Assembly: GCA_007378985.1 (NCBI GenBank)
Contig: VMHB01000005.1
Coordinates: 9,235-73,234 of the forward strand
Reading direction: 5' to 3'
Source: Parcubacteria group bacterium Greene0714_7
GTDB lineage: Bacteria; Patescibacteriota; Minisyncoccia; Phycocordibacterales; Phycocordibacteraceae
DNA: 64,000 nt
Of this stretch, positions 5,962 through 56,665 are shown piece by piece. The translations under genes were made by a program, and so were the position numbers. The notes beneath the pieces were generated by a model. That model saw only the letters and a program-made list of their open reading frames with translations. It had not been told where the DNA came from and searched no databases. Every line of letters starts with the position of its first letter. The stretch's first letter is position 1.

Positions 5962-6182
5962 TCAGAGATTATAACAGCCGAAAGCTTCTAGGTTCTAGGT
6001 GCTAGGTGCTAGCTTAAATTAGAATCACAAATACACATGTTTAAAGTTTTCTATATATCAGTTAACTGATATATAGAAATACGGCCTACAAAAATAGTAT
6101 TTCTACTTTGTGCTAAACCCGGGTTTAGCACACAAGACCTAAAGGCTTAAAAAGCTAGAAACTAACAGCTGGAACCTGACAC

Positions 6183-6902
6183 CTATTTTTCTAGTAGTGC
6201 CTTTTTAGCAGCATTTTGTTCTGCCTCCTGCTTCGACTTTCCTTCCCCTTGAGCTAATTCAATATCTCCAACGGACACTGATACTACGAATTCTTTATCG
6301 TGGTCAGGACCTTCTGCGCGTATCGTTTCGTATTTTGGGGTCATGCCGTATTTTGCCTGTGCAAATTCTTGGAATTCACTCTTTGCATCTCTCCACGCAC
6401 CCGTTGCCAACACTTCTGGCATACGAGTAATAACGTGTCGATTTATGAAATCAGCGGCACCTTGATACCCTTGGTCCATATAAAGGGCGCCTACAATTGC
6501 TTCAAAGGCATTCGCAAGAATGGTTGCCCGAGCGCGACCAAGGTCGCGCGCTTCTCCTTTTGAAAGAAGTAAGCAATCATTTACTCCAAGACTCTCTGCA
6601 ATATCTGCAAGCATTACTGCATTCACAAGAGCGGCACGGTAGTTAGTGAGATCGCCTTCGTTTGAATCGGGATACGCACGAAATAGGTGGTCAGTCACCG
6701 CAAGCTCGAGTACTGCGTCTCCTAAAAATTCAAGACGTTCGTTGTGTTCACCGTGAGACGCAGGAGTTACGGATGAGCGAGATTCATTGATGTAGGAGCG
6801 GTGCGTAAAAGCAGTATCGATAAACATCGGGTTTTTGAATGAGATGCCTGCGCGAGCTTCAAATTGTGCGCGTGCTTTTTTGTGAGCGTCAGTTATAGCC
6901 AT
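6183..6902 (-). CDS. rnc: ribonuclease III
   Basis: 239 aa; ERLEFLGDAVL RNase III signature plus C-terminal dsRBD-like region. Confidence 0.9.
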   Translation of the reverse strand: MAITDAHKKARAQFEARAGISFKNPMFIDTAFTHRSYINESRSSVTPASHGEHNERLEFLGDAVLELAVTDHLFRAYPDSNEGDLTNYRAALVNAVMLADIAESLGVNDCLLLSKGEARDLGRARATILANAFEAIVGALYMDQGYQGAADFINRHVITRMPEVLATGAWRDAKSEFQEFAQAKYGMTPKYETIRAEGPDHDKEFVVSVSVGDIELAQGEGKSKQEAEQNAAKKALLEK

Positions 6903-7780
6903 AGTCGTTTTGCTTCTTGTATACCCGACTGTATCATCTCCAAAAGATCTTCATATATAGACATACCACTTAGTGCATCCTCAGAAAACCACCTGGCGTC
7001 TTTGATACCACCAGAAATTGGAGCAGTGAGCGGAACTGCCTCGGGTGTAGACACGAGGAAATAACCAACGGTGCGAACCACACGCCCAATGTCTGGGTCA
7101 TGTGCAATAAACTCATGCTCACCTAAGACCGCTTTTATTTCTGCTTCAATACCAAAATCTTCTTTCATTGCACGCTTCGCTGCAGAGTCTGACAATTCAT
7201 CTTCAGCACACTTCGCTTTTGGTAGTGTCCAACGGTCAAACGCGTCGAGAACCAGTGCAACCTGTACTTTGCCATCAGTGATCGTCGTAAGAACAACACC
7301 ACCCAAATGTTCATGTGGGAGTGGTGTGGAATCTTTTGGCATGTCGTCTTTCCCTGGACTTCCAATCGAGCGATACACTGCCCCAAGAACACCATTCACA
7401 AATTTACCGCTTGAGTCAGAGCCATACGATTTAGCAAGTTCAATTGCTTCATTCAATGCAACTTTTGGTGGCACTGCATTCTTGTCTCCAAAAAGAAGTT
7501 CATAAAGACCGATGCGGAGTATATTCCTATCGATAGGAGCAATTTTATCAAGTGGCCACTGCGGAGCAGACGTTGCCATAACTGCATCGATTTCAGATTG
7601 CTTTGCAAGAATGCCGTCAAGAAGTGACTCCGCAAAAGGTCCATCAGAATCACCTTCCGCAAAATCCTTTAAGTTGCGAGCGAGTATGGTGCGTGCTGAA
7701 TCAATAACAAAAGTTCCTTGAGCATCACACTCAAAAAGTGTTTGGAGAACGTGGGAGCGAGATAGATGTCGGGAAGCCAT
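6893..7780 (-). CDS. nusB: NusB-like antitermination domain fused to a C-terminal Nudix-like hydrolase domain
   Basis: N-term RIGLYELLF...VALNEAIELAK...KFVNGVLG matches NusB; C-term E-x7-RAMKEDFGI resembles a degenerate Nudix box. Confidence 0.55.
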   Translation of the reverse strand: MASRHLSRSHVLQTLFECDAQGTFVIDSARTILARNLKDFAEGDSDGPFAESLLDGILAKQSEIDAVMATSAPQWPLDKIAPIDRNILRIGLYELLFGDKNAVPPKVALNEAIELAKSYGSDSSGKFVNGVLGAVYRSIGSPGKDDMPKDSTPLPHEHLGGVVLTTITDGKVQVALVLDAFDRWTLPKAKCAEDELSDSAAKRAMKEDFGIEAEIKAVLGEHEFIAHDPDIGRVVRTVGYFLVSTPEAVPLTAPISGGIKDARWFSEDALSGMSIYEDLLEMIQSGIQEAKRLWL

Positions 7781-7784
7781 TGTG

Positions 7785-7818
7785 AACTAGGGTATAGGGG
7801 TTAGGGTTTAGGGAAAGA
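7785..7818 (+). repeat. 7-bp periodic array (TAGGGNN)x4, G-quadruplex-capable, telomere-like GGGTTAGGGTTTAGGG
   Basis: ctagggtataggggttagggtttagggaaag read directly; four G3+ tracts with 3-4 nt loops. Confidence 0.6.
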
Positions 7819-7882
7819 AAAAAAGAAAGAAAGAAAACCAGACATACATACAGAATAGCAAAAAATAGCCTGCGTATGCAGA

Positions 7883-8194
7883 CTATTTTGCTTGTTTCGA
7901 TTTCTTGGGAAGTTTCTTAGTTTCCTCTTTTACTTTCTTTGGTTCCTCGACTGCCTTTTCTTTCGCTGGTCCAGATTCTTGTTCTCGGCGAGTTGATGAT
8001 TTTTTAGCGCGGAGTGCTCGAGCTGAAGCTTTATCCATAACTGAACGACCACGGTACATAGTGCCATCCAAAAGGGCGCGGTGGCGTGGGTGCGCTGTAC
8101 CATCCTTTGCGGAGGTAAGCTGCATTTTCTTCAAAGCGTGGTGCGAACGGCGATTTGCCGTGTGCGCCCGCGTATGTCTCATTCGTACTACCAT
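7883..8194 (-). CDS. rpmF: 50S ribosomal protein L32 with Lys-rich C-terminal extension
   Basis: RMRHTRAHTANRRSHHAL resembles L32 N-terminus; true start may be the internal Met (~8182). Confidence 0.65.
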   Translation of the reverse strand: MVVRMRHTRAHTANRRSHHALKKMQLTSAKDGTAHPRHRALLDGTMYRGRSVMDKASARALRAKKSSTRREQESGPAKEKAVEEPKKVKEETKKLPKKSKQAK

Positions 8195-8437
8195 TGAAAG
8201 GAAGATACCAGAAAACCCCTAAAACAGCAAGGTTTCGAAAGAAGCTGCCAGGTTTCAGCTTCCAGTTGTCAGCTTTTAATTCAGAAAAAGTCAAAAGCTG
8301 GGGCGTCTCGCACTCTTGGGTGCAGTCAAAAATCTTTCAGATGCAAGACGCGAGTGAGCACCAAACCCAAGCCTATCGAGCATATGGTAAGGGAGGGGCG
8401 GAGCGAGTAACGACGCAGGTGAAGATTTTGGACGCAC

Positions 8438-9426: not shown

Positions 9427-9531
9427 ACAAAGGGTTCTAGTTTATAGGTGAAGAAAAAATGCTTTTCCAGATGTTAGCTGTGTAAAGCTAGCACCTAGAA
9501 CCTAACACCTAGAACCTTTATACTAGACCTA

Positions 9532-12500: not shown

Positions 12501-12624
12501 TGAGGTCTACAAAACAAACGCTAGCGTGCTAGTGGAAGGCACATGCATACTCTTTAAAGGCAAGCTATCAAAGCGAAACGGCGAACCTTCAGTGTTAATC
12601 GATAAAGTGAAAGCACTGAGTTAG
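9532..12624 (+). CDS. dnaE: DNA polymerase III alpha subunit (1030 aa, compact)
   Basis: PHP domain HLSAHSHYSLLDGI; polymerase core motifs; OB-fold C-terminus. Confidence 0.9.
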   Translation: MSSFSHLSAHSHYSLLDGIIQIDALVSSAMFFGMPALALTDHNNLYGAIEFYKACKQAGIKPILGVDADILIGDTEDHIIFLAENNEGYQHLLKLVSHAYLDLSKETDGNALPKVTAEHIQKYGKGLIALIPDTALVRRNSEALVETLRQGLGKENVYARLGWNGGRDQQIRIAGIATALALPMVASDDSYYLKSEDRQARDIVRRIATPGITADTRDLTFCSVESAQEHYRDFPEALLNTEKIAERITVDLNLGSWLFPRFPIPKGTTYESELKVAIAKGLIERGMEATEEVTKRIDYELSIITAKGFAPYFLTVADLLSHARTNGILTTTRGSAAGSLVSYLTGITNVDPISYRLPFERFLNPERPSAPDIDMDFADNRRDEMLVYAKEKYGEECVAQIGTFGTMMARAAVRDVARALGYPYGVGDRIAKLIPLGSQGFPMTLKKALEMEDELKKLYKSDEDAEIIINTAKQVEGNARHISIHAAGIVIAPSAVSDFVPVQFEPSGSAIITQYDMHEVEDAGLLKFDFLGLTNLSILGDSVERVKIRKGVEVDIENIPLDDAKTFAMLARGETGGVFQLGGSGMTHYLKDLKPTSIHDINAMVALYRPGPMESIPQYIERKHNPALVTYLDPRMKDILDRSYGIITYQDDVLLIAIHLAGYTWLEADQLRKAMGKKIPVEMEAQKEKFIQGCVEKGKIQKTKAESLWKLIEPFAAYGFNKGHAASYGKVAYQTAYMKANHPEDYMASLLSADSGDTERIADDVAECERIGIRVLPPDINESYESFTVIAHGMIRFGLSTIKNFGEGAAKTIIEERTRGGKFTSIGDVLSRVPGSIINRRALESLIKCGVFDAFNNRGILLANIEKLLLFAKDAGATSAGQDSLFGTMVRHTDIALDPARALSQIEMLNSEKELLGIYVSGHPLDQFKAELAKYPHSIKFARAEERNGYPLTVCGVIESIKTILTKKGDKMAFITISDKDGFIETVAFPEVYKTNASVLVEGTCILFKGKLSKRNGEPSVLIDKVKALS

Positions 12625-12706
12625 GTTATAGCTTCTAGGTGCTAGGTTCTAGGTTTAAATTCAGCATCCGAAAAGCTAGCACCTAGAAGCTAGTCCCTAG
12701 AACCTG
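12621..12706 (+). repeat. inverted pair of 7-bp-periodic TAGGT/TAGCT arrays flanking an 18-nt spacer, between dnaE and thrS
   Basis: ttaggttatagcttctaggtgctaggttctaggttt ... gctagcacctagaagctagtccctagaacctg. Confidence 0.6.
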
Positions 12707-18886: not shown

Positions 18887-18895
18887 AAAAATTAA

Positions 18896-22395: not shown

Positions 22396-23454
22396 ATGGA
22401 AAACGATTTAAAAAAGACCCAGTCACGCCTCGGGGGCGTTGCAGTACGAGCTCTTGCCATTTTTGGCTTTCTCGCAATTATTATTGTAGGTATGTGGGGC
22501 TCTGTGCAGGTGGCGCGCGGTATCCCAAATGCATTCTCATCATTCGCATCAGCGATTGTGAGCTTTACTTCAATCTTCGTTCCTGCGGGAGAAAAGATTG
22601 CTCTTTCAGCACCTTCGCTCACTATCAATTCAAGCGAACCATTTGTACTTTCATGGACACATGAGAAGAAGAGCATCGAGGGTTCATATACATTCCGCTA
22701 CAACTGTGCGGACGGCGTATCATTCATGAGCGCTTCAACAACGGTCTACTGTAATGTTCCTTTCAATTTCACACACTCAAGCAACCAAATAACTCTCACT
22801 CCCCTTTCAACTAATAACCGATTCGTCGATGTGCAAGTCTTCATCGACTTCACACCAAACGGCGCAAATCGTCCTACTGTTACTGGGCAAACAACATTCA
22901 CTATTCAAAACACAGGAAATGCAACAAGCCCAGGAACGCTCACTCCTACAACTCCAGTAACAACAACACCAACTCCTACAACGCCTGTAGTAACAACCCC
23001 TCGTCCAGTGACCGCAGGCCCAACACAAACTCAGGTCTACCCAATCAACGGAGGTGTAGGTGTCTCTAACCCAAATGGCTATGTTGACCTCACTGCACGC
23101 ATTCTTGAAATTGGTGTCGTGGATAAAAGTTCTGGTGTCTTTACCGCAAGCTCAACTCCAAGCCGTACAAACACTCGTATTGCAGTTCGCTTTGCAGTCG
23201 AAAACATTGGTACAAAAACCTCACCTGAGTTTGACTTCAATGCAGTACTTCCAACACTCCCTGCAAACATCTTCTCAGCACCACTTCAGCAAGCTCTTGC
23301 CCCTGGTGACCGTATTGAATTCACTGTAGGATTTGACAGCTTTGACGCTTCAAAGCCAGACGGACTCTTCGTGGTAAATATTGATCCTGCAGGTCGCATC
23401 AACGAGCGCAACAAGGACAACAACATCGTGAGATACACGATCACAACGAGATAA
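22396..23454 (+). CDS. membrane-anchored protein with Thr/Pro-rich linker and C-terminal CARDB-like domain
   Basis: Start MENDL...; TM helix; TTPTPTTPVVTTP linker; C-term ...NERNKDNN typical of CARDB. Confidence 0.55.
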   Translation: MENDLKKTQSRLGGVAVRALAIFGFLAIIIVGMWGSVQVARGIPNAFSSFASAIVSFTSIFVPAGEKIALSAPSLTINSSEPFVLSWTHEKKSIEGSYTFRYNCADGVSFMSASTTVYCNVPFNFTHSSNQITLTPLSTNNRFVDVQVFIDFTPNGANRPTVTGQTTFTIQNTGNATSPGTLTPTTPVTTTPTPTTPVVTTPRPVTAGPTQTQVYPINGGVGVSNPNGYVDLTARILEIGVVDKSSGVFTASSTPSRTNTRIAVRFAVENIGTKTSPEFDFNAVLPTLPANIFSAPLQQALAPGDRIEFTVGFDSFDASKPDGLFVVNIDPAGRINERNKDNNIVRYTITTR

Positions 23455-23465
23455 TCTGAAGAAGG

Positions 23466-23498
23466 TTTTAGGTGCTAGCTTATAGGTTATAGCTTTTA
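23466..23498 (+). repeat. 7-bp periodic TAGGT/TAGCT array
   Basis: ttaggtgctagcttataggttatagctttt. Confidence 0.55.
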
Positions 23499-23510
23499 AG
23501 AAAGAAAAAT

Positions 23511-23669
23511 ATGACTGACCTCAATAAAGATAAGTCTCCTGTTCGGCAAGAGAAAGAAACCTGTAAAGGCTGTAGTGGTACTGGAGCGATAGAAATGTTT
23601 TCTGTGTACAAAAAATGCCAGAGGTGTAAAGGAACCGGTAAATCCTATCCATATTCACTAGACGATTAA
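23511..23669 (+). CDS. mini zinc-finger protein, 52 aa, two CxxCxGxG motifs (DnaJ CR-type-like)
   Basis: MTDLNKDKSPVRQEKETCKGCSGTGAIEMFSVYKKCQRCKGTGKSYPYSLDD; paralog 100 nt downstream with the same 5' leader and 3' element. Confidence 0.45.
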   Translation: MTDLNKDKSPVRQEKETCKGCSGTGAIEMFSVYKKCQRCKGTGKSYPYSLDD

Positions 23670-23769
23670 TAGCGGGCCACAACCGACGGGTGCGAACTCC
23701 AAGCAAAAAATAAAAGAATTAGTCATTATGAGAAGTAGAATAGATTTTAGTTTTTAAGAAATAAAAAAT

Positions 23770-23904
23770 ATGTCTGACTTCAGTAGAGACCAGCAACCTG
23801 AAAAGAGAGAAAAGTGTAGTACCTGTAAAGGCAACCGTGAAATACCAACCTCATTCGGGTATATCCCATGTGCTGTATGTAGCGGGAGCGGATACAAATC
23901 TTAA
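23770..23904 (+). CDS. mini zinc-finger protein paralog, 44 aa (CSTC...CAVCSGSG)
   Basis: MSDFSRDQQPEKREKCSTCKGNREIPTSFGYIPCAVCSGSGYKS; conserved leader ttttaagaaaNaaaaatATG and 3' CCGACGGGTGCGAACTCCAAGCAAAAAA shared with the upstream copy. Confidence 0.45.
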   Translation: MSDFSRDQQPEKREKCSTCKGNREIPTSFGYIPCAVCSGSGYKS

Positions 23905-23948
23905 AGAAATTCCGACGGGTGCGAACTCCAAGCAAAAAACTCTCCTTC

Positions 23949-23973
23949 ACCGGAGAGTTTTTCTGTTCTCATT
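23949..23973 (+). terminator. rho-independent terminator after the second mini zinc-finger gene
   Basis: ctctccttcaccggagag hairpin followed by TTTTT. Confidence 0.55.
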
Positions 23974-24024
23974 CATGCTCTACCCACTGCTTCCAAAAAC
24001 AATCACAACAGTGAATACTGACGG

Positions 24025-24060
24025 TATAGTATAAATTAACGATCGTTAACTTATACTATA
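24025..24060 (+). repeat. 36-nt near-perfect palindrome TATAGTATAAATTAACGATCGTTAACTTATACTATA (family copy 1)
   Basis: One mismatch; a perfect 52-nt version lies at 31546..31597. Confidence 0.65.
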
Positions 24061-24185
24061 CAGCCTTAAATAACATAAAAAGAAAAATCCAGTGACAATA
24101 GCGCAACCTAGCAATTAAAAACCCTCCTTAATCAGAGAGTTTTTAATTTCTGTATTGATGTTAAAAAGCTAAACGCTAGCCCCTG

Positions 24186-28919: not shown

Positions 28920-30704
28920 TTATCGAACCTCCCAGTTTTTTTGAGTCACTGCCTTCGTTACTAAATCCATCCACCCACTTACTTCATCATCGGTGAGCGT
29001 TCTATCATCCGCTTGGAATACTAATCGAAATGCATACGAAGTTCTGCCGTCTTTAGAGAATGTATCGAAAAGCTCACACCGCACCAGTAGCGGTCCTGCA
29101 TTCTCCATTATGTGGGACCTCGTAGGTCCCACATCAGTGCCTTCGGGAGCCCAGAGGGCAATATCGCGGACAATAAAAGGATATACAGAGAAAGGCTGAT
29201 ACATACCGAGTTTATATTTTTTCGGTGTGTAATCTTTTCCATAGTCTTCAAGTTTTGCAATTGAAAGATTATCTACCGTGCCAGCGCCTTCTCCCCACGC
29301 AGAAACTCGTTCAGTCATGCGAAGCTCCACATATTCTCCCGCTTTAGGAAATACGGTGCCCACTTCAAAGAGTTTTAATTTTTCACCGGGCGACAGGAGA
29401 AGCGATTGATACTGCTTGCCTCGAGCGAGAGCGTCTTGAACTCCTATTTCAAGACTGGGACGAAGTGCCGGCATGGTTTTATCAAGCGGGTTCGCAAGAT
29501 ATTGCGTCGAAACTTCAACGAAGCCTTCCTCTACAAGCATGTCTTTCATCCGCTCAATACCTCGATAACGCGCTTGATCGGGTGCGGTGTTGAAGGTAGG
29601 CTCTACTCTAGGCACGCGATCATATCCCAAAATTCGCCCTACTTCCTCGATCAAATCTTCAGGAATCTTGAGATCAGTTCTTTCAAATGGGGGCGTTATG
29701 GTAAATGCATTTTCTGAAATGGAAACAGAAAGATCAAGTCGTTTAAAAACATCAGCGACTTCTTCTTTTAAGAAACCAGAACCAAGAAGTTGGTTAATAC
29801 GGTCGAGCGTGATCGAAACATCGATAGGCGTATCTTGAGGTTTATTACGAATGTCTACCACCCCAACCACTTCCCCTCCTGCAACCTGCTTGATGAGAGA
29901 AAGAATCGCCTGCATACCATACACAGTTAATTCAGGGGACGGACGATTTTGAAATCGTTGAGACGCATCCGTAAAGAGCTTTAATTTTTGTGAAGCCTTA
30001 CGAATGAGCGTACCGTCGTAATTTCCTGCAGAAATAAAGAGATCTTTTGTTTCGCTCGTGACTCCAGACGAGAACCCTCCTTTAATGCCAGCAATGTCGA
30101 GAAGCGATCCGCCGACTGCGTCGGAAAATGTAAACATCTCTTCCGTGAGTGTATATTCTTCGCCCGTGAGCACCTTTATTTTCTCACCTGCTTTCGCACG
30201 ACGAATATCTACCTTTACAACACCATTATCATCCTTTATTTTCGCAAGATCAAAAGCGCCTGATGGCTGACCGATATCAAGAAGCACATAGTTGAGTACA
30301 TCAACAACGTTATTGATTGATCGCTGTCCCACAGACTCGAGTGCACTCTTTAGCCACTCGGGCGAAGGCCCAACAGTAACTCCACGAACAAGTGCGCCCG
30401 TGTGCCGAAGCGTGTATGCAGGATCTGCCGTCACCATAAGTGTGTCGGTTTTCGGAAATTCAGGGATGGGTGCACGAAGTGGATCCGATTTTAAGGGGAG
30501 ATTAAGGATTGCAGAAATTTCTTTTGCGACACCACGATGCGACAAACAATCTGCGGCCCGATTTGGAAGTACTTTCACATCCATCGAAACCTCTTCAAGA
30601 TCCTCTATCTCGAATGCGTGGAATGTGAGCGCGTCCGCAATATCCTTCGGGCTCGGGAGCGGCGCGTCAAAGTATTTCTGTAGCCATGCAGTTGAAACTT
30701 TCAT
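28920..30704 (-). CDS. pheT: phenylalanyl-tRNA synthetase beta subunit (shortened)
   Basis: 594 aa; MKVSTAWLQKYF N-terminus; B3/4 and B5 domains; carries an in-frame copy of the 25-nt palindrome near the C-terminus. Confidence 0.85.
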   Translation of the reverse strand: MKVSTAWLQKYFDAPLPSPKDIADALTFHAFEIEDLEEVSMDVKVLPNRAADCLSHRGVAKEISAILNLPLKSDPLRAPIPEFPKTDTLMVTADPAYTLRHTGALVRGVTVGPSPEWLKSALESVGQRSINNVVDVLNYVLLDIGQPSGAFDLAKIKDDNGVVKVDIRRAKAGEKIKVLTGEEYTLTEEMFTFSDAVGGSLLDIAGIKGGFSSGVTSETKDLFISAGNYDGTLIRKASQKLKLFTDASQRFQNRPSPELTVYGMQAILSLIKQVAGGEVVGVVDIRNKPQDTPIDVSITLDRINQLLGSGFLKEEVADVFKRLDLSVSISENAFTITPPFERTDLKIPEDLIEEVGRILGYDRVPRVEPTFNTAPDQARYRGIERMKDMLVEEGFVEVSTQYLANPLDKTMPALRPSLEIGVQDALARGKQYQSLLLSPGEKLKLFEVGTVFPKAGEYVELRMTERVSAWGEGAGTVDNLSIAKLEDYGKDYTPKKYKLGMYQPFSVYPFIVRDIALWAPEGTDVGPTRSHIMENAGPLLVRCELFDTFSKDGRTSYAFRLVFQADDRTLTDDEVSGWMDLVTKAVTQKNWEVR

Positions 30705-31436: not shown

Positions 31437-31447
31437 ATAGAGAAGAG

Positions 31448-31490: not shown

Positions 31491-31545
31491 CCCCGTGAGG
31501 TAAATCATTTAAACACTACTCGCCTCCTAGGGTTTACAGTACCAA

Positions 31546-32501: not shown

Positions 32502-32512
32502 GTAGAGAATAG

Positions 32513-32555
32513 TATACCCCCACACCTTTTCAGAATGAAAAGGTGTGGGGGTATA
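32513..32555 (-). promoter_or_regulatory. second copy of the 18-bp-stem hairpin, 12 nt upstream of the PEGA gene start
   Basis: Same stems, loop cagaatg; followed by tatactattctctacATG. Confidence 0.55.
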
Positions 32556-32567
32556 CCCCGTGAGATG

Positions 32568-34178
32568 TTAGTTTTTTTGCACGACAGGCTGTGTGCGTCT
32601 ATTTTTTGGTGTCACCCAAAAACCAAGATATTTCCCAAACAAAAGTCGGACCTGCGCATCAAGACCAGGTATCGCACTGAAAATAACCATAGTGAACGGA
32701 ACAAGAATCCACTGGAGCGCCATAGTGATACTTCGGCGCCACGAGTACTCGTGTGGGCGCTGTGGAACTAAATACATAAAGAAAATTGAAGATGCTACGA
32801 GACCCGACATCGCAAGCGTCAAAAACCATGTGGCAACAATAGGAAGATTATATGAAAGCACCGTTGCGTTGAAAGTATGACCTCCAATAAAGAGCGGTAG
32901 CCATCCCACAGCAAAGAGAATTAATGGGTGTGTCGCTAAAGACCAGAACCCTTCAATTTGTATAAACGATAAACGCCACTTTTTCGAAAACGAAATACGC
33001 GGATTGTGCATGAAATTAAAAAGCATATACGCTATATTTTCTGCGCCGTATGACCAACGACGATGTTGCTTGTACAGACTACCCACGGTACTAAGCCAAC
33101 TCTGCGACACATTTGCATCCATAGACACCGGATACGACATAGGCACGACACGATAATTACCGTCGTAATGCATGAAAAGATTAAAGAAAATTCGAGAATC
33201 TTCTGATACCACATTCTTCTGCCAATATCCGACATCAACAAGTGCACGCATGGAGACAGCGTGCGAGGAAAATGTCGTAAGACGTTCAGGCATCTCCTGC
33301 TGAATCATTTGCCAGAAAGTTGAGGAATACGCGAGCACCCTTGAAAGAATTGGTGCATTCCAAATATTATTATTATAGAGAGGTACTGGCTGAAACGAAG
33401 CGTGAAGTGCATCATCCTCGGTAAGAAAGTACCAAGTAAGGCATGCAAAATAATCTGGATAGATTACAGTGTCGACATCAAATGCTGATACCAGTGTTTT
33501 TTCATAACTAATCCCACGCGCATCTAAAATTCGCTCCTTTGCTTCTTTGGCAGCGTACGCAATGTTTGAGCCCTTTCCAGGAAGCTCACCTAGGGTATTT
33601 GGTGGGTGCACTGTAACAATCACATCAGCAAAGTGGTCTTTAAATTCTTTTTGCAAACGAAGTGCTGTGCTCTTAGCGTCGGCACCAGCACGTTCTTCCG
33701 AAGCAATAACAATCGCAATTTGTTCTTTCGGGAAACGTGACTTTTGCAAGGCAGAAATACTTTCAGCAAGGACTTCATATGGCTCGTTGGCAAAAGGGAA
33801 AATTACGAGATGTAAAATATCCTGATATTTAAGGTTCAAGAGGCGTGCTTGCCAATCAAGTTCCATGTTATGACGAAGTCGCTTGAAGTTGTGCCATAAA
33901 TGAACCGAAAGAAAAATAGTCTTAAAAACCCAGTACCCTGAGAAAAGAATAGTGAAATAGGCAGCGAGTGCAGGAGCAAAAAATGAAAGCGCCACTAAAC
34001 CAAAGAGTGTTCCGAAGGAGAGGAGTCCTGGCAGTATTTCAAAAACACGGTACAAAGTTCGATTTTTACCAGTAAGGTCAGAAGCTCTACCTACATGTAG
34101 ATATGGATTTTTTTCTAAGGAGTTTTCCATATGGTGAATGAGTACAAGAAAATCTTTAGTGGCGAAATGCCCGAACAC
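32568..34178 (-). CDS. family 2 glycosyltransferase, processive membrane-embedded type (cellulose/PNAG synthase-like)
   Basis: 536 aa; multiple TM helices; QHRRWSYG (QxxRW) motif; start may be the internal Met at ~34130. Confidence 0.75.
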   Translation of the reverse strand: MFGHFATKDFLVLIHHMENSLEKNPYLHVGRASDLTGKNRTLYRVFEILPGLLSFGTLFGLVALSFFAPALAAYFTILFSGYWVFKTIFLSVHLWHNFKRLRHNMELDWQARLLNLKYQDILHLVIFPFANEPYEVLAESISALQKSRFPKEQIAIVIASEERAGADAKSTALRLQKEFKDHFADVIVTVHPPNTLGELPGKGSNIAYAAKEAKERILDARGISYEKTLVSAFDVDTVIYPDYFACLTWYFLTEDDALHASFQPVPLYNNNIWNAPILSRVLAYSSTFWQMIQQEMPERLTTFSSHAVSMRALVDVGYWQKNVVSEDSRIFFNLFMHYDGNYRVVPMSYPVSMDANVSQSWLSTVGSLYKQHRRWSYGAENIAYMLFNFMHNPRISFSKKWRLSFIQIEGFWSLATHPLILFAVGWLPLFIGGHTFNATVLSYNLPIVATWFLTLAMSGLVASSIFFMYLVPQRPHEYSWRRSITMALQWILVPFTMVIFSAIPGLDAQVRLLFGKYLGFWVTPKNRRTQPVVQKN

Positions 34179-35825: not shown

Positions 35826-35846
35826 CTATCTTATTTTTCTACTGAG

Positions 35847-35919
35847 AGCCGCCTCCCAGATTCGAACTGGGGACCTTCACTTTACAAAAGTGTTGCTCTA
35901 CCAACTGAGCTAAGGCGGC
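35847..35919 (-). tRNA. tRNA-Thr (anticodon UGU), CCA not encoded
   Basis: rc reads GCCGCCTTAGCTCAGTTGGTAGAGCAACACTTTTGTAAAGTGAAGGTCCCCAGTTCGAATCTGGGAGGCGGCT; cloverleaf folds, loop TTTGTAA. Confidence 0.8.
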
Positions 35920-37740: not shown

Positions 37741-37800
37741 CGGCTACTAGGTTATAGGTTTTAAATTCAAGCTAGAAGCTAGCACCTAGAACCTAGTACC
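37741..37800 (+). repeat. 7-bp periodic array: TAGGT units then reverse-orientation AGCT/ACCT units across ~60 nt, between prfA and rpsB
   Basis: ctaggttataggttttaaattcaagctagaagctagcacctagaacctagtacc. Confidence 0.6.
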
Positions 37801-37803
37801 TTC

Positions 37804-38748: not shown

Positions 38749-38821
38749 AGTAATTAGCCACTAGTGATTAGGGTATAGGGAGTGTGGGGTTTTGCCTAGT
38801 GGCTATACCCTATTGGCTAAC

Positions 38822-44039: not shown

Positions 44040-44075
44040 AAGTAGGTGCCAGGTTTCAGGTGTCAGCTTTCTGGT
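44040..44075 (+). repeat. 7-bp periodic array of CAGGT/CAGCT units
   Basis: aggtgccaggtttcaggtgtcagctttctggttg; relatives at 8238..8275 and 6150..6190. Confidence 0.5.
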
Positions 44076-46512: not shown

Positions 46513-47545
46513 GCGTATCTTGAATAATACACTACACACCTACGTCCGAGAGAAAGACGGAGATGGTACAATTGCGCCAATGAAGAGTGATTTTATAGCA
46601 ATTGGCGACACGGTAGTCGATGAATTCATTGAGCTTGAAGAAGCAAATGTACATTGTGATGTTAATAGCGAGCAGTGCACCATTTCAATGCGTTGGGGCG
46701 ACAAGATACCTTTTAAATCGGCTACGCTTGTTGCTGGCGTTGGAAATTCAGCCAACGCAGCGGTAGCAGCATCACGACTTGGATTAAAAGTGGCACTCGT
46801 TACACACACAGGTAAAGACAGCTATGGAGATGAAATTATTCGCACATTCAAAAAAGAGAGATTAAATACTTCATATATAGCGCGCCAAAGCGGGGTACCC
46901 ACAAATCATCACTACGTACTTTCCTATCAGTCAGAGCGCACCATTCTCGTGAAGCACGAGGCATACGCATACCGCTTCCCTAAAAATCTACCTGAACCTA
47001 AGACTATATACCTGTCCTCTTTGGCTTCGACCGCTGAAAGTTATCACGATGAAATTGCTAGCTATCTTGAAATACATCCGAATATCTTTTTTGCTTTCCA
47101 ACCAGGAACATTCCAAATGAAGTTAGGGGCAGAGCGACTCATGCGACTCTACCACCGTGCAAACATTCTTTTTGTAAATAAAGAGGAAGCGGGGCGCATC
47201 CTCAAAACACCTGAACTGAAAGATATACGGACACTCGCGGAAGGATTACGAAGTTTGGGTCCTAAAATAGTTGTGATTACTGATGGTCGCGCTGGAGCAT
47301 ATGCGTTAGATAAAGATGAGTTAATTCATCTCAACATGTACCCCGACCTCGCTCCTCCAATAAATCGCACAGGCGCAGGAGACGCATTTGCTTCAACTAC
47401 CGTAACCTACCTTACGCTTGGCATGTCACTCAAGGATGCAATGTTCCGAGGCACTATTAATTCCGCCCATGTAGTGCAGAAAATCGGTGCACAAAAAGGA
47501 CTCCTCACCAAAGAAGCGCTTGAAGAACTTGCAACAAAAAAATGA
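46511..47545 (+). CDS. PfkB-family carbohydrate kinase
   Basis: 344 aa; GAGDAFASTTVTYL anion-hole motif; overlaps tal start by 4 nt. Confidence 0.8.
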   Translation: MRILNNTLHTYVREKDGDGTIAPMKSDFIAIGDTVVDEFIELEEANVHCDVNSEQCTISMRWGDKIPFKSATLVAGVGNSANAAVAASRLGLKVALVTHTGKDSYGDEIIRTFKKERLNTSYIARQSGVPTNHHYVLSYQSERTILVKHEAYAYRFPKNLPEPKTIYLSSLASTAESYHDEIASYLEIHPNIFFAFQPGTFQMKLGAERLMRLYHRANILFVNKEEAGRILKTPELKDIRTLAEGLRSLGPKIVVITDGRAGAYALDKDELIHLNMYPDLAPPINRTGAGDAFASTTVTYLTLGMSLKDAMFRGTINSAHVVQKIGAQKGLLTKEALEELATKK

Positions 47546-48264
47546 CACCAAAAAAAATAGAGGAACTGCGAATAAAACTCTACGCCGATGGCTCTGAAGA
47601 GAAAGAGATGCTCGCACTCGCCGAGAAAGCCTACATCAAAGGCTTCACTACGAATCCTACCTTGATGCACAAAGCGGGTGTTACTGACTACACAGCATTT
47701 GCAAAAAAAATACTAACCGCTATTCCCAATAAACCAATATCGTTCGAAGTTTTTTCAGATGATTTTCCAGAGATGGAACGCCAAGCTCGCCTCATTGCTT
47801 CATGGGGCGAAAATGTATACGCAAAGATTCCTATCATGAATACAAAAGGAGAATCATCAGCCCCTTTAGTAGAAAAACTATCGAACGATAGCATCAAGCT
47901 CAATGTCACGATGATTCTGACCTCCGAGCAGGTACAAATCGCAACAGAGGCTCTGAGTACTTCAACTCCATCAATCATTTCAGTCTTCGCAGGACGAATT
48001 GCGGATGTTGGTATTGACCCAATTCCTGTGATGCGAGACTCAAAAGCAATTACCTCCACAAAATCCTCCATTGAACTTTTGTGGGCTTCTACTCGTGAGC
48101 TTTTTAATATCTATGAAGCAGAAAGAATCGGTGCAGAAATCATTACCGTTCCCCCATCGATTCTGAAAAAACTAGGAGACATCGGCAAAACTCCGGAGGT
48201 ACTCACCCTCGAAGGTGTGAAAGTCTTCTATGAAGACGGCAAAGAGGCTGGCTTCACCCTCTAA
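47542..48264 (+). CDS. tal: transaldolase / fructose-6-phosphate aldolase (short type)
   Basis: 240 aa; GFTTNPTL motif. Confidence 0.85.
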   Translation: MTPKKIEELRIKLYADGSEEKEMLALAEKAYIKGFTTNPTLMHKAGVTDYTAFAKKILTAIPNKPISFEVFSDDFPEMERQARLIASWGENVYAKIPIMNTKGESSAPLVEKLSNDSIKLNVTMILTSEQVQIATEALSTSTPSIISVFAGRIADVGIDPIPVMRDSKAITSTKSSIELLWASTRELFNIYEAERIGAEIITVPPSILKKLGDIGKTPEVLTLEGVKVFYEDGKEAGFTL

Positions 48265-48270
48265 CACATT

Positions 48271-48298
48271 CCTATATATCAGTTAACTGATATATAGG
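48271..48298 (+). repeat. 28-nt perfect palindrome CCTATATATCAGTTAACTGATATATAGG between convergent tal and tkt genes (copy 2; copy 1 at 6049..6078)
   Basis: Read directly; AT-rich, so more likely a protein-binding or REP-like site than an intrinsic terminator. Confidence 0.65.
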
Positions 48299-48320: not shown

Positions 48321-49316
48321 TTACTTCGATTTTCTAGCGAGCACTTTCAGAACTGCTTTTTCTATGCCAATCGCATCAAGACCGTAGTAGTGTAAAAGCT
48401 CTTGTGGCTCGCCTGACTGACCGAACGCGTTATGCATACCCACAAACTCCATAGGCACTGGATGATTTTGTACGAGAAATTCCGCAACGGCACTGCCAAA
48501 TCCTCCCGCTACTTGGTGTTCCTCCACCGTTACTACTGCACCCGCATCTTTCACTGCTTCTAAAATAGTTTTTTCATCAAGTGGCTTTACTGTGTGACTA
48601 TTTATAACCGATACGCTAATCCCCTTTCCCTCTAACGACTTCGCTGCAAGAAGTGCTTCATATACCAAATGTCCCGCAGCTATAATTGCGACATTGGGTT
48701 TTTCTGGTTTCCAAAGATAGTATGCTTTCCCAATTTCAAATGGAGTTTCCGGAGTTGTAAATGTCGCAACTTTGTCACGACCAAATCGCAAGTATGTTGG
48801 CTTGCCATTTTTAGCAGATGCAACCACCGCTTTTCTTCCTTCTTCTGCGTCCGCAGGAACGATGACAATCATGTTGGGAAGCGCTCGCATCATTGCAATG
48901 TCTTCAAGCATTTGGTGTGTTGCGCCATCAGGACCCACCGAAATACCTGCGTGCATTCCACACACTTTCACCGGCACATTATTTAAAGCAATCGTGGTGC
49001 GAATCTGTTCGTAGTTACGCCCCGGACTAAACGCAGCGTAGGACGCGATGAATGGAATTTTTCCAACCGCAGCCATACCCGCCGCAACAGTTGCGAGGTT
49101 TTGCTCCGCAACACCAACCTCCACAAATCGATCTGGAAATTCTTTCTGAAACCACGATGCGCGCGTAGAGTCACCTAAATCAGCCGATAGAACAACAACA
49201 TTCTTGTTTGCTTTTCCTGCTTCCACGGTGCCCATACCAAGCCCATCGCGAGTAGGCGTTTTTTCAATTGCGTCGGTAAATACTTTTTCTGAGAGTTTTG
49301 CGTCTTGTGGAATCAT
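48321..49316 (-). CDS. transketolase, C-terminal section (pyrimidine-binding and C-terminal domains)
   Basis: 331 aa; split transketolase second half. Confidence 0.85.
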   Translation of the reverse strand: MIPQDAKLSEKVFTDAIEKTPTRDGLGMGTVEAGKANKNVVVLSADLGDSTRASWFQKEFPDRFVEVGVAEQNLATVAAGMAAVGKIPFIASYAAFSPGRNYEQIRTTIALNNVPVKVCGMHAGISVGPDGATHQMLEDIAMMRALPNMIVIVPADAEEGRKAVVASAKNGKPTYLRFGRDKVATFTTPETPFEIGKAYYLWKPEKPNVAIIAAGHLVYEALLAAKSLEGKGISVSVINSHTVKPLDEKTILEAVKDAGAVVTVEEHQVAGGFGSAVAEFLVQNHPVPMEFVGMHNAFGQSGEPQELLHYYGLDAIGIEKAVLKVLARKSK

Positions 49317-52602: not shown

Positions 52603-52640
52603 CCCGTGATTTTAACACGCTTAGTTTTCTCATCCCCACA

Positions 52641-53395
52641 CAATGTTCGACTTCGTAAGTCGAACATTGTAGAATAAAGTAAAGAATTATGGATCTGTAC
52701 CATGCACTTAATCGTGGAGTCGAAAAGAAAGATATTTTTCTTGATACGCAAGACTATGCACGTTTTGTGCACGATTTGTATGTATTCAATGATATTCGCC
52801 CAGCAGAAAATACGCGTCGCAACCTACAACCTCAAATGTTCGACTTACGAAGTCGAACATTTGAGAAGAGGGAGAAATTAGTGGAGCTGCACGGTTGGTG
52901 CTTAATGCGGAACCACTATCACCTGCTTCTATCAGAAAAAAGTGAAGGCGGTATTGCCAAATTCCTTCGAAAATTAAATATAGGGTATGCAAAATACTTC
53001 AATGAAAAATACGAACGGAATGGGTATGTATTTAGCGGACGGACGAAAAAAGTACTGATAGAAAATGACGCTCAATTCAACTATATCCTTCACTACATTC
53101 ATTTGAATCCACTTGATTATCTGAAAGGTGCTGAAGAGTGGAGAATACGGAGTAAAGGTGGTATCAAAAACCTGAAGGATGCGCTAGCGTACCTTAAATC
53201 CTACCGCTGGAGTAGTTACCTTGATTACATTGGGGAACAAAACTTCCCTTCTATACTTACCACTTCTCTTTTTGGAGAGCCATCAGGAAGTTACGAAAAA
53301 ACTATAGAGAAGTATCTGAAAGGTGCCGAACATACTGAGCTCAAATCAAACTCAATCGCGTTAGAATGATGTGGGACCTACGAGGTCCCACATAT
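52641..53395 (+). mobile_element. RAYT-like unit: Y1 (IS200-like) transposase gene flanked by two related 25-nt palindromes (ATGTTCGACTTCGTAAGTCGAACAT upstream, ATGTGGGACCTACGAGGTCCCACAT downstream)
   Basis: Both palindromes share ATGTnnGACn...nGTCnnACAT; inverted-orientation copies occur inside the RAYT CDS (~52836) and inside pheT (~29113). Confidence 0.6.
52689..53369 (+). CDS. IS200/IS605-family Y1 (HUH) transposase, REP-associated tyrosine transposase-like
   Basis: 226 aa; YHALNRGVEKKDIF...LMRNHYHLLL (HUH motif)...NYILHYIHLNP (candidate catalytic Tyr helix). Confidence 0.7.
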   Translation: MDLYHALNRGVEKKDIFLDTQDYARFVHDLYVFNDIRPAENTRRNLQPQMFDLRSRTFEKREKLVELHGWCLMRNHYHLLLSEKSEGGIAKFLRKLNIGYAKYFNEKYERNGYVFSGRTKKVLIENDAQFNYILHYIHLNPLDYLKGAEEWRIRSKGGIKNLKDALAYLKSYRWSSYLDYIGEQNFPSILTTSLFGEPSGSYEKTIEKYLKGAEHTELKSNSIALE

Positions 53396-54347: not shown

Positions 54348-54727
54348 GGTGTTCCGTCAAGCCGTCGCCACTCCACACCGTTACATCCTAAAAATTTCTT
54401 GTAAAGTGCGTCGTATCGAATGGCACCTTCAATCGCTGTAGTACATTCTCTTGGTTCCGTTGAATAGGTACGAATCATTCCGTACACATCAAGCTCTGTT
54501 GTTGGCGCTTGATTACGAACTCCCACTTTTCCATCAGCGGTCACTGTAAAATAGTTGTCGCCCGTTGAACTTGCAACTTGAAAAATATTTCCACTGGTGT
54601 CTACACCATCAAAGACAATGCCGGAAGAATTCACACTCCAAAACCACACCCCGCCAACAACGAGTGCACCAAATACAAATGAAGCGAGCATGAGGATTGT
54701 ATGTGCGTTTTTCATATCGGCTTTCAT
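54344..54727 (-). CDS. small membrane-anchored protein with a single tail-fibre-type module (GKVGVRNQAPTTELDVYG)
   Basis: 127 aa; N-terminal TM; module matches the GNVGIGTTxPxxKLxV unit repeated in the downstream giant proteins. Confidence 0.4.
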   Translation of the reverse strand: MKADMKNAHTILMLASFVFGALVVGGVWFWSVNSSGIVFDGVDTSGNIFQVASSTGDNYFTVTADGKVGVRNQAPTTELDVYGMIRTYSTEPRECTTAIEGAIRYDALYKKFLGCNGVEWRRLDGTP

Positions 54728-54917
54728 TTTCTATCTAATTCTATTACGCTTTTTGCAGAGCATATAACTTACTCAACAACAGAATTGGAATCAACGCCAG
54801 TGATCAGCCCCCATGTTGGGTTTACGAAACCCAACATTTGAAACGGGGGGGGTCGAACTGGTCGACATACGATGTCTGCCATGGGGGTGTTCATACTACT
54901 CATACTAAGGAGAGTTT

Positions 54918-56665
54918 TCATGTGCCGGAGGGAGTGGATGTTGAGGAGGGTGTAGGGTTTAGCGTATCGGGTATAGGGGAAGCGGAGGGAGGAGTTGGTT
55001 CGGAAGTGCTTCCAGCAGACTCAACGATCACGGTGCGGGTGACGTTTGCGGTATTCCCCGCAACATCCACCGCTCGGTAGGTCACTGTGTGTGTGCCGGG
55101 AGCGCTCGTATCAAGATTCACTGTCAAGGTTTCAACGCCATCGAGTAGTGTAGTCATGCCGATGTTTTGGTCTACGTTGTCGGTGACCAACGCGCCAAGA
55201 TCAGCGTATGAATTACCTACCTGAATTGTTGCTGGATTGTTTCCATTAATAAGGATGGTGGGAGCTTGGGAGTCACCCTGAGGAAGGTTAGAGGTGCTAG
55301 GTTCTAGGTTAGAGGTGGAAGAAAATGTGGGAGTGGAGGTTGCGAGGTCAACGACGAAGTAGTCAAAAGATGCATCATTTTGAAGCGGTGCGTTCAGTGC
55401 AACAGTGAAACCACCGTCAGTCTTTTCACTCACATACCACCCGCTTCCAGTATTTGAATTGAAGGTGACAAACACTTTTGAATGTTCGGCAACGAGAATA
55501 TTTCGTACCAAGACACTCGTCTCCCCCGCTGGGATTGTTGCGGAGCCTGCGGGAGCGTCACCGGTAGCTCCTGGGGTTGCCACGAAGTGGTTTGCAGCAA
55601 GCGTGCTCGCAGTAACCGTACCATTTGCGATACTTACACTTTGACTCGTGAGTGCTGTTTCAAGTGCGCCCGCAATATTTCCAACTGCACCAGATACCGC
55701 ACCTGAGACACCACTTCCATTTTCCAAAGCAACAACGCGCGCGGTGAGTTCGGAAACTAGAGCAACGAGTGCATCAAATTTATTTGCCAAGCTCTGCAAA
55801 CCGCCCACCGCCACCGAAAGCAACTTGTACAAATCAATGCCGTTGCCTTTTGTGGAGCGAACAATCTGCGGAGCCTCTTCTGCAATGAGTCCCACTCTTC
55901 CTGCGCTTGCTGGTTCGTTTTTGTAGTGATACTCGGCAACCATGAGTCCGCGAACAGTTTCAAGGAAACTGTTCGCGGTAGTGGTGCTGATGTGTTGAAT
56001 GTCTGCCTTTGAATCCCCTTCTGAAAGATTCACGAATCCTGTTGCAATGATGTCGCCACCCACCGCAAGACGGTAGTTAGAACCTCCGGTGTTTGTTGGA
56101 GTAGTGGTGCCAATGCCCATGGTGCCGGTGGTCGCATCAATGGCGAAGTCCTGTGGCGCCAACCAGTACTGTGATGACACGAAAGTTTCTACGGTACCTG
56201 CAGTTGTTGAGGCTGTGTAATTTTCAAGTGCAATACCAATAGTCTGACCAGAATGGAGTGCTTTCACTGCAACGCCTGGTGTTGTGGTTGAAAGCATGAG
56301 TCTATCGCCAATTGCGATTGGGCCGTTTTCGATTGAAACTTTCACCGGTACACGACCAGAGAGATTAATCCTGGATCGGTTGAAACGACACCAAGTGGAA
56401 TAGAGCCGGGAGTCGCTGTGGTGATAGTCGTTCCGCTCGTCAAATCAAGTGAAGCAATAGTGCCTGCATTAATACTGACATCTGATGTTGGATAATTTTC
56501 TGCAACGTCGTAGGTACCTACAGAAGCGGAGCGGTAGTAGATACTTCCTGCCGTGGTGCCACAAGCAACAGTAGAGCCAGCACCTCCAGAGAAACAGCCA
56601 GCACCAACGACGGTGAAGTTGCTTTTTGGCGAGGTAGTACCCACGCCCACATTGCCGGTTGCCAT
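54918..56665 (-). CDS. tail-fibre-like protein, probably one gene split by a frameshift at ~56345 (ORFs 56342..56665 + 54918..56345), C-terminal Ig-like domain
   Basis: The upstream ORF opens with MATGNVGVGTTSPKSNFTVVG, the GNVG[IV]GTTxP fibre module found in the giant genes downstream; the ORFs abut with a 4-nt overlap in different frames; the CDS holds a 7-bp periodic TAGGT array (~55290..55325) encoding STSNLEPSTSNLP. Confidence 0.4.

Follow-up and report, generated by a model that had tools for sequence, protein, structure and literature searches.

The DNA considered here is a window of 64,000 nt from contig VMHB01000005.1 (GenBank assembly GCA_007378985.1) of Parcubacteria group bacterium Greene0714_7, a member of the Candidate Phyla Radiation (CPR), in which arrays of tandem 7-nt units (heptads) lie at gene boundaries. 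We propose that an array represents one of the two arms of a small palindrome between genes, with about five tandem heptads per arm, and that these palindromes would be largely selfish stem-loops in short spacers, similar to the intervening sequences (IVSs) of 23S rRNA but devoid of an open reading frame (ORF); we regard the arguments for and against this proposal as evenly balanced. It draws on other genomes, in which heptad arms enclosing a gene for the S23p protein (PF05635) reproduce the architecture of the 23S rRNA IVS. The elements would have entered very short spacers at the one place that can be spared there, from the stop codon to the next -10 box, and their arms would be maintained via slippage and exchange between arms. 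By analogy with the IVS, read-through transcripts may fold to stems of ~17-25 paired positions, as possible substrates of RNase III. We infer that the elements are transcribed, cleaved by RNase III and mobile, and that the ORF-less copies descend from ORF-bearing ones.

All the arrays listed in a preliminary description of this DNA are present, and their 7-nt period is strict. Against 100 dinucleotide-preserving shuffles of the window, which serve as the null for pattern counts, the strict pattern (YAGSTNN)x2+YAGST gives 8 matches (shuffled mean 0.01, maximum 1) and the looser pattern AGS[TG]N3 x3 gives 13 (0.29 expected). Pentamer self-matches number 119 at distance 7 and 96 at distance 14, over a baseline of ~60-85 at the remaining distances not divisible by 3, and Tandem Repeats Finder reports a period of 7 or 14 at 5988, 7790, 8243, 9488, 12622, 12673, 23463, 37772, 44044, 54947 and 55292. 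Fifteen of 17 arms are intergenic, where intergenic DNA makes up 6.8% of the window (binomial p 3.5e-16), which bears out the earlier statement that nearly all arrays lie between genes and abut their starts or ends; arms are found in 9 of the 28 spacers of at least 40 nt. CTAG, described there as normally under-represented in bacteria, is depleted across the window (87 observed vs 124 expected), and 27 of the 87 sites (31%) fall inside 551 bp of arrays. Rfam and tRNA scans of the window find only tRNA-Thr (35846-35919), and the arrays match no known RNA family. The window has no HIP1 (GCGATCGC) sites, and its ThrS relatives are Paceibacterota (CPR), which together rule out a cyanobacterial origin.

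The heptads follow the consensus [T/C/A]AG[G/C]T[T/G]N. The main unit type is TAGGTKC, with arms arranged as 5'-(TAGGTKC)5, a short loop and (GMACCTA)5-3' (G arm and C arm, respectively). Two variants coexist with it: CAGSTKN at 8242, 44043 and 6151, and TAGGGTN at 7788, 38769 and 54947, the latter correcting the unit type assigned earlier to the arrays at 7788 and 38769. The repeats had been described as open-ended, whereas the strong arms are fixed 35-nt modules of five heptads, which open with a unit of AAGGT, AAGCT or TAGGT, continue with three [T/C]AG[G/C]TKN units and close with a terminal, loop-proximal TAGCTTT. This last unit runs on into TTTAA(A)TTCA, a loop motif common to different loci. 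In the revised inventory (Table 1), the arrays at 5985 and 6150, previously counted apart, are the arms of one palindrome, whose 140-nt insert contains two other perfect palindromes. The inverted pair at 12621-12706 stands, and 37741-37800 is an inverted pair as well; the array at 9483-9522 gains a decayed partner arm at 9427-9450, and a weak arm is added at 24165-24185 next to the gyrB stop. The copy reported inside a coding sequence at 55290-55325 is real and is joined by a second at 54947-54978, both in Ser/Thr/Pro-rich linkers encoded by ORF 54918-56345(-). In the 55285-55319 array, the sense strand reads CACCTCT AACCTAG AACCTAG CACCTCT, with TCT in place of TAG precisely where TAG would fall in frame.

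The arms pair with each other. RNA folding gives -38.9 kcal/mol (z -5.2) for 12622-12656 with 12672-12706, -24.1 kcal/mol (z -3.2) for 37748-37761 with 37768-37802, and -68.3 kcal/mol (z -4.7) for 5982-6016 with 6151-6185; 23462-23496 pairs with the weak arm 24165-24185 over ~670 nt, and the decayed arm 9430-9450 faces 9484-9518. Arm pairs from metagenome contigs fold with z scores of -8.6 to -13.8. As in an IVS, terminal inverted repeats form a long stem, which has 23 consensus pairs over three orthologs.

The syntenic loci of relatives were collected through ThrS homologs, and the percentages given here are ThrS identities. L202 (95%), L206 (86%) and L207 (84%) carry arms at the spacers that hold them in the window, with differing unit types. 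The arms of L202 are identical to those of the window in the rnhB/dnaE spacer, in the spacer between the L32-like and 129-aa genes and after the CARDB-like gene. In the dnaE/thrS spacer, L202 has a 5+5 palindrome made of YAGCTKN units and L207 one of TTAGGGT/TTAGTGT units, while L206 has no arms there and an intact 5+5 CAGGT/CAGCT pair at rnhB/dnaE. Both arms change together between relatives, and the three filled dnaE/thrS spacers show compensatory double changes in 9 of the 23 consensus pairs. Four relatives, L209-L212 (80-83%), are without arms; their rnhB/dnaE and dnaE/thrS spacers are mostly 17-36 nt long, and the short ones consist of just a -10 box and the ATG. Since the spacers are filled in the relatives at 84-95% and arms are missing in L209-L212, the arms are lineage-specific additions, which keep position and palindromic design while the unit sequence turns over. 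The occurrence of arrays at orthologous loci in the nearest relatives confirms the positional conservation raised in the preliminary description, and the rapid, array-wide unit turnover fits its suggestion that they are the footprint of a repeat-generating process. Compared with L202, the window has a ~124-nt insertion at ~8300-8425 in the spacer between the L32-like and 129-aa genes, adjoining the 8242-8276 arm. In L202 (3290-3320 and 5230-5260) and L206 (~4800), TTAGYGN heptads are fused to a dispersed repeat, GGCGAYGYTTCRTCGGGTCCGWAGGGACCATA, which suggests composite repeat elements.

S23p is widespread, and its only known role is that of Avd, the accessory protein of diversity-generating retroelements. 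In two metagenome contigs with TAGGTGC arrays (L154 and L166), a small PF05635 ORF (23S_rRNA_IVP, "four helix bundle protein") sits in the palindrome's loop. Further PF05635 loci picked by protein similarity alone (L229-L234) include L229/L234, L230 and L231, which share this design; in L229, L230 and L234, 20 kb of sequence contain no period-7 array other than the arms flanking the gene. Distant PF05635 genes on complete plasmids (L235-L237) have a G-rich tandem repeat on one side and its complement on the other, and two more loci (L004 and L077) were found by a PF05635 profile search of ORFs in loci gathered for other reasons. Altogether there are ~10 independent PF05635 loci (Table 1), in which the arms are clear in most cases and partial or weak in L004, L038 and L077; the flanking arms are not all of period 7, some having a period of 8. 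The sole PDB relative is XCC0516 from Xanthomonas campestris (2GSC, five chains), and a GGGAATC array overlaps the annotated start of XCC0516 and of its X. axonopodis ortholog (supplementary table of Rehm et al., PMC4692102). Our literature search found no paper that generalises the link between heptamers and PF05635. The PF05635 element of the Picosynechococcus plasmid (L235) interrupts a type III-B CRISPR operon, where it separates cas10 from cmr3. The PF05635 homologs of the L154 protein (P0241-P0358) lie mostly on contigs of <2 kb, and such short contigs fit assembly breaks at flanking repeat arms.

Table 1. Heptad arms and a transposase gene in the window, and heptad arms at PF05635 genes in other genomes. 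Units of arms on the - strand are given in the G form as read on that strand.
Feature	Position	Strand	Units	Surroundings
G arm, 5 heptads	5982-6016	+	AAGCTTC TAGGTTC TAGGTGC TAGGTGC TAGCTTA	C form on the smc sense (-) strand, just 5' of TATAAT -10 box and ATG (start 5961)
Partner arm of 5982-6016	6151-6185	-	TAGGTGT CAGGTTC CAGCTGT TAGTTTC TAGCTTT	First TAG doubles as stop codon of RNase III gene (rnc, 6183-6902)
G arm, TAGGGTN variant	7788-7815	+	4 heptads, four GGG tracts	7 nt from nusB start (7780); orthologous TTAGKGN heptads in L202 and L206
G arm, CAGST variant, 5 heptads	8242-8276	+	AAGCTGC CAGGTTT CAGCTTC CAGTTGT CAGCTTT	Upstream of L32-like gene 7883-8194(-); L202 copy nearly identical
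Decayed G arm	9430-9450	+	AAGGGTT CTAGTTT ATAGGTG	Adjoins RNase HII start (9426); intact 5+5 pair in orthologous spacer of L206
C arm	9484-9518	-	AAGGTTC TAGGTGT TAGGTTC TAGGTGC TAGCTTT	Abuts TATACT -10 box of dnaE (ATG 9532); identical in L202
G arm	12622-12656	+	5 heptads	First TAG (12622-12624) is the dnaE stop codon
C arm	12672-12706	-	5 heptads	Followed by TGGTATATT (extended -10) and thrS ATG 12729
G arm	23462-23496	+	5 heptads	7 nt past stop of CARDB-like gene (22396-23454); conserved in L202
Weak C arm	24165-24185	-	CAGGGGC TAGCGTT TAGCTTT	Directly after gyrB stop (24186); strong 5-heptad arm in L202
Short G arm	37748-37761	+	TAGGTTA TAGGTTT, then loop TTTAAATTCA	Upstream of rpsB start (37715)
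C arm	37768-37802	-	AAGGTAC TAGGTTC TAGGTGC TAGCTTC TAGCTTG	1 nt after prfA stop (37804)
Imperfect palindrome	38769-38819		TAGGGTA/TAGCCAC variant	Upstream of prfA start (38748)
G arm, 4 heptads	44043-44070	+	TAGGTGC CAGGTTT CAGGTGT CAGCTTT	Upstream of TATACT -10 box and ATG of SLT-domain gene (start 44021)
TAGGGTN-type array in coding sequence	54947-54978	+		Inside ORF 54918-56345(-); encodes linker PIPDTLNPTP
Five-heptad array in coding sequence	55285-55319	+		Inside ORF 54918-56345(-); encodes STSNLEPSTSNL
Y1_Tnp (IS200-like) protein, 226 aa	52689-53369	+		PF01797, 28.2 bits vs cut-off 23
PF05635 gene, L229/L234			(CGGGTGC)n upstream, (GCACCCG)n downstream	
PF05635 gene, L230			(CAGGTGC)n upstream, (GCACCTG)n downstream	
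PF05635 gene, L231			TAGGTGC-type arms	
PF05635 gene, Riemerella plasmid			AAGGTTY upstream, RAACCTT downstream	
PF05635 gene, Nostoc plasmid			GGGGAAA-type arms	
PF05635 gene, L235	126543-126899		Inverted GGAGATA-type repeats	Picosynechococcus sp. PCC 7003 plasmid NZ_CP016476
PF05635 gene, L004			(AAGTTTNN)x5 upstream, single matching unit downstream	Upstream array directly precedes ATG
PF05635 gene, L077			GACTNNT x3 downstream	Upstream complementarity only partial
PF05635 gene, L038			TAG-core heptads both sides	CPR locus; flanks complex

A metagenome scan for TAGGTGCTAGSTNNTAGST yields at least 120 contigs (GC 0.33-0.71), about half of which carry long TAGGTGC arrays. Most of these arrays are paired and occupy whole spacers right up to the flanking genes (e.g. 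rpoB/rpoC, upstream of ddl, and thiolase/etfB); one of these contigs belongs to the class Thermoanaerobaculia (Acidobacteriota). Across the metagenome loci, arrays have 3 to 27 units. In the window and 120 metagenome contigs together, adjacent arms of opposite orientation run G then C in 37 of 38 cases and C then G once, and single arms read as TAGGTGC in the 5'->3' direction away from the nearest boundary, start or stop, in all spacer types. Most simply, the palindrome would be inherited as a whole, and either of its arms can decay. A universal rule that the G-rich strand of all heptamers points away from the gene was rejected, the other CPR units dividing 9 vs 8. Other CPR loci hold period-7 arrays with unrelated units, and none of 25 non-CPR control loci has two or more period-7 arrays. 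Matches in viral contigs (16) are about the chance expectation, itself taken from a rough estimate of collection size. One contig labelled viral, IMGVR_UViG_3300049215_000802 (82.9 kb, covering L227, L216 and L223), has TAGGTGC arrays at GC 0.54-0.66, with three convergent TAGGTKC pairs within 6 kb in L227. Contig Ga0075118_10052223 (L115; 1.5 kb, GC 0.43) consists nearly entirely of TAGGTTT/CAGGTTT and CAGGGTT/TAGGGTT heptads, in runs of up to 27 units.

In the window the arms adjoin housekeeping genes (smc, rnc, nusB, an L32-like gene, rnhB, dnaE, thrS, gyrB, rpsB, prfA and the L25 gene) and are flush with a stop codon on one side and with the following gene's -10 box on the other. On the sense strand, the offset from the gene boundary is -3 to +5 nt for the G form at stop codons and 1-28 nt for the C form at start codons, a rule valid in tandem, convergent and divergent spacers; directly upstream of -10 boxes, the C form is found at seven genes (smc, dnaE, thrS, the SLT-domain gene, nusB, rpsB and prfA). 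None of 41 gene starts in the window has a Shine-Dalgarno (SD)-like 4-mer at positions -20 to -5, and -10-like hexamers (TATAAT or TATACT) are most frequent at -14 to -12, counted from the ATG of these genes, so the organism appears, from its sequence, to use leaderless mRNAs throughout. Mimicry of the SD/anti-SD pair (AGGUG vs CACCU) was rejected as an explanation of the arrays, given that 0/41 genes have an SD-like 4-mer and that the other unit types do not fit. Stop usage in the window is ordinary (TAA 22, TAG 12, TGA 11), and RF1 (prfA) is encoded. A role in supplying stops in all frames was also rejected: (TAGNNNN)3 gives six-frame stops, yet CAGST units contain no stops. A duplicated hairpin-like motif, CACGGGGTATACCCCCACACCTTTTC...GAAAAGGTGTGG, occurs at ~31470-31510 and 32535-32575, just upstream of two ORFs with called GTG starts that may be in error (pheS, 30708-31460, and 31647-32525). 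The interior of the CARDB/gyrB palindrome (23500-24160, ~670 nt) contains two similar small CxxC-rich ORFs and, around 23940, a canonical bidirectional terminator, AAAAACTCTCCTTCACCGGAGAGTTTTT; relatives hold different small ORFs in this interior.

The preliminary description took the arrays for a class not yet described, but heptameric intergenic tandem repeats are published (PMC4692102, PMC4679880; the cyanobacterial short tandemly repeated repetitive sequences, STRRs; Mrazek 2007). The arrays belong to these bacterial heptameric intergenic simple sequence repeats by their head-to-tail 7-nt unit, copy number and non-coding bias, and within them are a new sequence family: neither the TAGGTKC family, nor its presence in CPR and Acidobacteriota, nor the 5+5 module was found in the searchable literature. 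A literature string search for TAGGTGCTAGGTGC and its permutations returned only unrelated primer sequences, and no paper was found that joins CPR terms with heptamer repeats.

Closest in organisation are the ~186 GGGAATC arrays per Xanthomonas genome and the GGGGAYT arrays of Nostoc (Rehm et al. 2015, PMC4692102). The Xanthomonas arrays prefer four units, are ~90% intergenic, include 70-75 convergent pairs and are transcribed, their function being unknown (PMC4692102). In both systems and in the window, the 7-nt unit has 4-5 conserved and 2-3 variable positions, the G-rich strand is sense after or overlapping stops and antisense just before ORFs, convergent pairs occur, the neighbours are housekeeping genes, and units and lengths shift between close species. 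The intergenic share (~90%) is also common to Xanthomonas and the window, whereas the preferred copy number in the window is five. The window further differs in its TAGGTKC unit and in its CPR host, which is apparently leaderless and without SD sequences and has arms flush with -10 boxes. Rehm et al. favoured G-quadruplexes to explain the heptamers (PMC4692102), which require four G3 tracts; in the window, TAGGTKC and CAGSTKN units have only GG, the exception being the TAGGGTN-type arm 7788-7815, so that the G-quadruplex cannot be the common denominator.

Direct repeats of TAACTGA are found in Beggiatoaceae from marine settings and in some members of the cyanobacteria and Bacteroidetes (MacGregor 2015, PMC4679880). 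They share with the window arrays a heptamer unit in sets of 2-6 copies, an intergenic position a few nucleotides from start codons, few canonical ribosome binding sites and a distribution scattered over phyla; their unit sequence differs, and they are almost all direct (one indirect in 170 sets), whereas inverted pairs prevail among the window arms. According to PMC4679880 and PMC4692102, heptamers were the most frequent long simple sequence repeats in the survey of Mrazek 2007, which explained them by slippage. As represented in the same two papers, STRRs and long simple sequence repeats resemble the window arrays in having tandem 7-nt units over-represented in non-coding DNA, and their descriptions there include no fixed 5+5 palindromic module or flush gene-boundary position.

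The IVS of Coxiella burnetii 23S rRNA is a selfish 428-nt element with an S23p ORF and a 28-bp terminal stem cut by RNase III, in which two to four tandem GACAGAT heptamers, variable in number between strains, precede the ORF, the first of them being the site of the cut (Warrier et al. 2016, PMC4990558). Like this IVS, and that of Leptospira as far as it is cited in PMC4990558, the window elements have an inverted-repeat stem and heptamers variable in number, and IVS-like arms of the TAGGTGC, CAGGTGC and AAGGTTY types bracket PF05635 genes in other genomes. The window copies differ in lying between or inside protein-coding genes and in having no ORF in the loop; the window contains no rRNA, hence no insertion in helix 9, 25 or 45 of 23S rRNA.

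Several observations weigh against the reading of the arrays as ORF-less, IVS-like stem-loops. A PF05635 profile search found no such gene among the ORFs of the window or of the relatives' syntenic loci of ~20 kb, so that the link to IVSs is drawn from architecture and from the arm sequences of other genomes. Comparison of filled spacers with empty ones (L209, L211 and L212) gives no obvious target-site duplication of the kind that accompanies the terminal inverted repeats of a miniature inverted-repeat transposable element (MITE), the arms being the whole element, and there is no evidence of transposition of the arms. The co-variation of the arms is explicable by palindromic gene conversion without selection on RNA, and arms near promoters in the divergent spacer (9484-9518) may never be transcribed. 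The canonical hairpin-plus-T-run terminators elsewhere in the genome imply that the arms are not needed as terminators. In the metagenome set, complementarity within pairs is 0.83 vs 0.81 between loci (permutation p 0.01), and one arm's number of units does not correlate with the other's; a strong match between the arms of a locus was accordingly rejected. A wider proposal, that the STRR-type, GGGAATC, CPR/Acidobacteriota TAGGTGC and IVS heptamers are not plain slippage products but all belong to one selfish stem-loop family, as its arms or as non-autonomous derivatives without an ORF, of which the form with a PF05635 four-helix-bundle gene in the loop would be autonomous, with the S23p toroid reading the arms and RNase III excising the element, is tentative, and we are inclined to doubt it.

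Among the alternatives, the one that survives best is that the arrays are purely mutational simple sequence repeats, grown in place by slippage, tolerated only in non-coding slots and functionless. In many prokaryotes no class of long repeat is commoner than heptamers, as summarised in PMC4679880; other CPR loci have period-7 arrays with unrelated units; unit numbers in metagenomes vary as widely as 3 to 27; array-less relatives seem to manage with tiny spacers; and the in-coding-sequence copy is constrained only at in-frame stops. We nonetheless consider this explanation unlikely, since it does not predict fixed 5-heptad modules with a distinct terminal TAGCTTT and a loop motif common to different loci, the strict order of G then C arms (37 to 1), or a TAGGTGC palindrome type found in distant phyla and around one gene family.

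The preliminary description compared the arrays to iteron-style binding sites. Such arrays are known from plasmid pSM19035, where the ribbon-helix-helix protein omega binds 7-10 contiguous 7-bp units, direct and inverted, upstream of promoters, with a preference for direct and converging heptads over diverging ones. As DNA-binding-site arrays, like the omega WATCACW heptads or the 8-bp met boxes of MetJ, the window arrays would be promoter-proximal operators or insulators, in keeping with the C arms immediately 5' of -10 boxes at seven genes, the five units per arm and the convergent pairs. The omega operators, however, have another unit sequence, are plasmid-specific and lie adjacent to the regulator gene, whereas the window arms also follow stops, including those in convergent spacers, and change freely. 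Arms stand at anything from about 0 to 19 nt from the -10 box, relatives without arms retain the promoters, and no ribbon-helix-helix gene is present among the window ORFs scanned with Pfam and NCBIfam (about eight ORFs were unscanned). The coexistence of three unit types (TAGGTKC, CAGSTKN and TAGGGTN) in one genome, and the complete divergence of units in orthologous spacers, where arms switch type among relatives of 84-95% identity, speak against one DNA-binding protein with sequence specificity. The iteron comparison thus finds no direct support, and a role as operators appears improbable.

We would likewise be surprised if the elements were I-shaped intrinsic terminators without a U tract, or stabilisers of mRNA 3' ends like the repetitive extragenic palindromic (REP) sequences of E. 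coli. Their hairpins are stable, the G arms begin at or within 5 nt of stop codons, and the more distant relatives L001 and L002 have a canonical GC hairpin and T run at dnaE/thrS, at the site of the window's heptad palindrome. Against this, no T run follows the stems, single arms cannot fold, and the closer relatives L209, L211 and L212 have no hairpin at that site. As canonical hairpin-plus-T-run terminators lie between the arms in the convergent CARDB/gyrB spacer, the arms are not the only terminators, and probably they are not terminators at all.

Another explanation, which we find scarcely plausible, is that the heptads serve at the RNA level as tracks for a protein with a footprint of ~7 nt that binds single-stranded repeats and regulates translation or stability. 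Tracks of this kind were proposed for heptamers just upstream of start codons (MacGregor 2015, PMC4679880), and most window units place a UAG every 7 nt; the S23p of Xanthomonas, a homopentameric toroid (PMC4990558), is a possible reader, other candidates being cold-shock or S1 OB folds and a HutP-like reader of UAG-N4. CAGST units, however, lack UAG, paired arms would be double-stranded, and in a leaderless organism arms 5' of the -10 box fall outside the mRNA.

It is very improbable that the arms are REP or REPIN elements mobilised by the Y1 transposase encoded in the window, which resembles the REP-associated tyrosine transposases (RAYTs). This protein has HUH and Tyr motifs, and several dispersed palindromes are present in the genome; the arms resemble REPs and REPINs in being short palindromes dispersed outside genes, frequently as inverted pairs, where the neighbouring genes are co-directional or convergent (PMC3733652). 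They differ in their internal 7-nt periodicity and in the REP tag GTAG or CGTC, which is absent at the 5' end and elsewhere in all listed arm sequences; moreover, the transposase gene is flanked by other palindromes rather than heptads, and its only homolog among the loci examined (L022) sits in an array-free locus. The protein contains HYHLLL and YIHLNP motifs and has a weak match to model NF047646 (REP-associated tyrosine transposase). Upstream of its gene is the palindrome ACAATGTTCGACTTCGTAAGTCGAACATTGT (52636-52670), with a second copy inside the coding sequence (52837-52860) that encodes MFDLRSRTF. Another, GTGGGACCT..AGGTCCCAC, occurs at 53371-53393, in the convergent spacer after the gene, and at 29112-29132, inside pheT. 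A perfect AT-rich palindrome, TCTATATATCAGTTAACTGATATATAGA, has two copies, at 6045-6075 in the loop of the 5982/6151 heptad palindrome and at 48266-48296 between the convergent genes 47542-48264 and 48321-49316. Rho loading, primase CTA/CTG sites and R-loop expansion were considered as ideas only, and that of Rho fails for cyanobacteria, which to our knowledge lack Rho.

Heptamer repeats have been noticed in bacterial genomes since 1990 and are still unexplained. The minimal, apparently leaderless CPR genome described here offers a clean case, with discrete 35-nt modules and empty sites in close relatives, in which the G-quadruplex explanation is inapplicable. Should the link to PF05635, which recurs in several phyla and in the published Xanthomonas and Coxiella data, fail, the arrays would be a useful but ordinary record of a new CPR/Acidobacteriota repeat family. 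If it is true, two open questions would merge into one, and binding of the arms by S23p and their excision by RNase III would become the points at issue.

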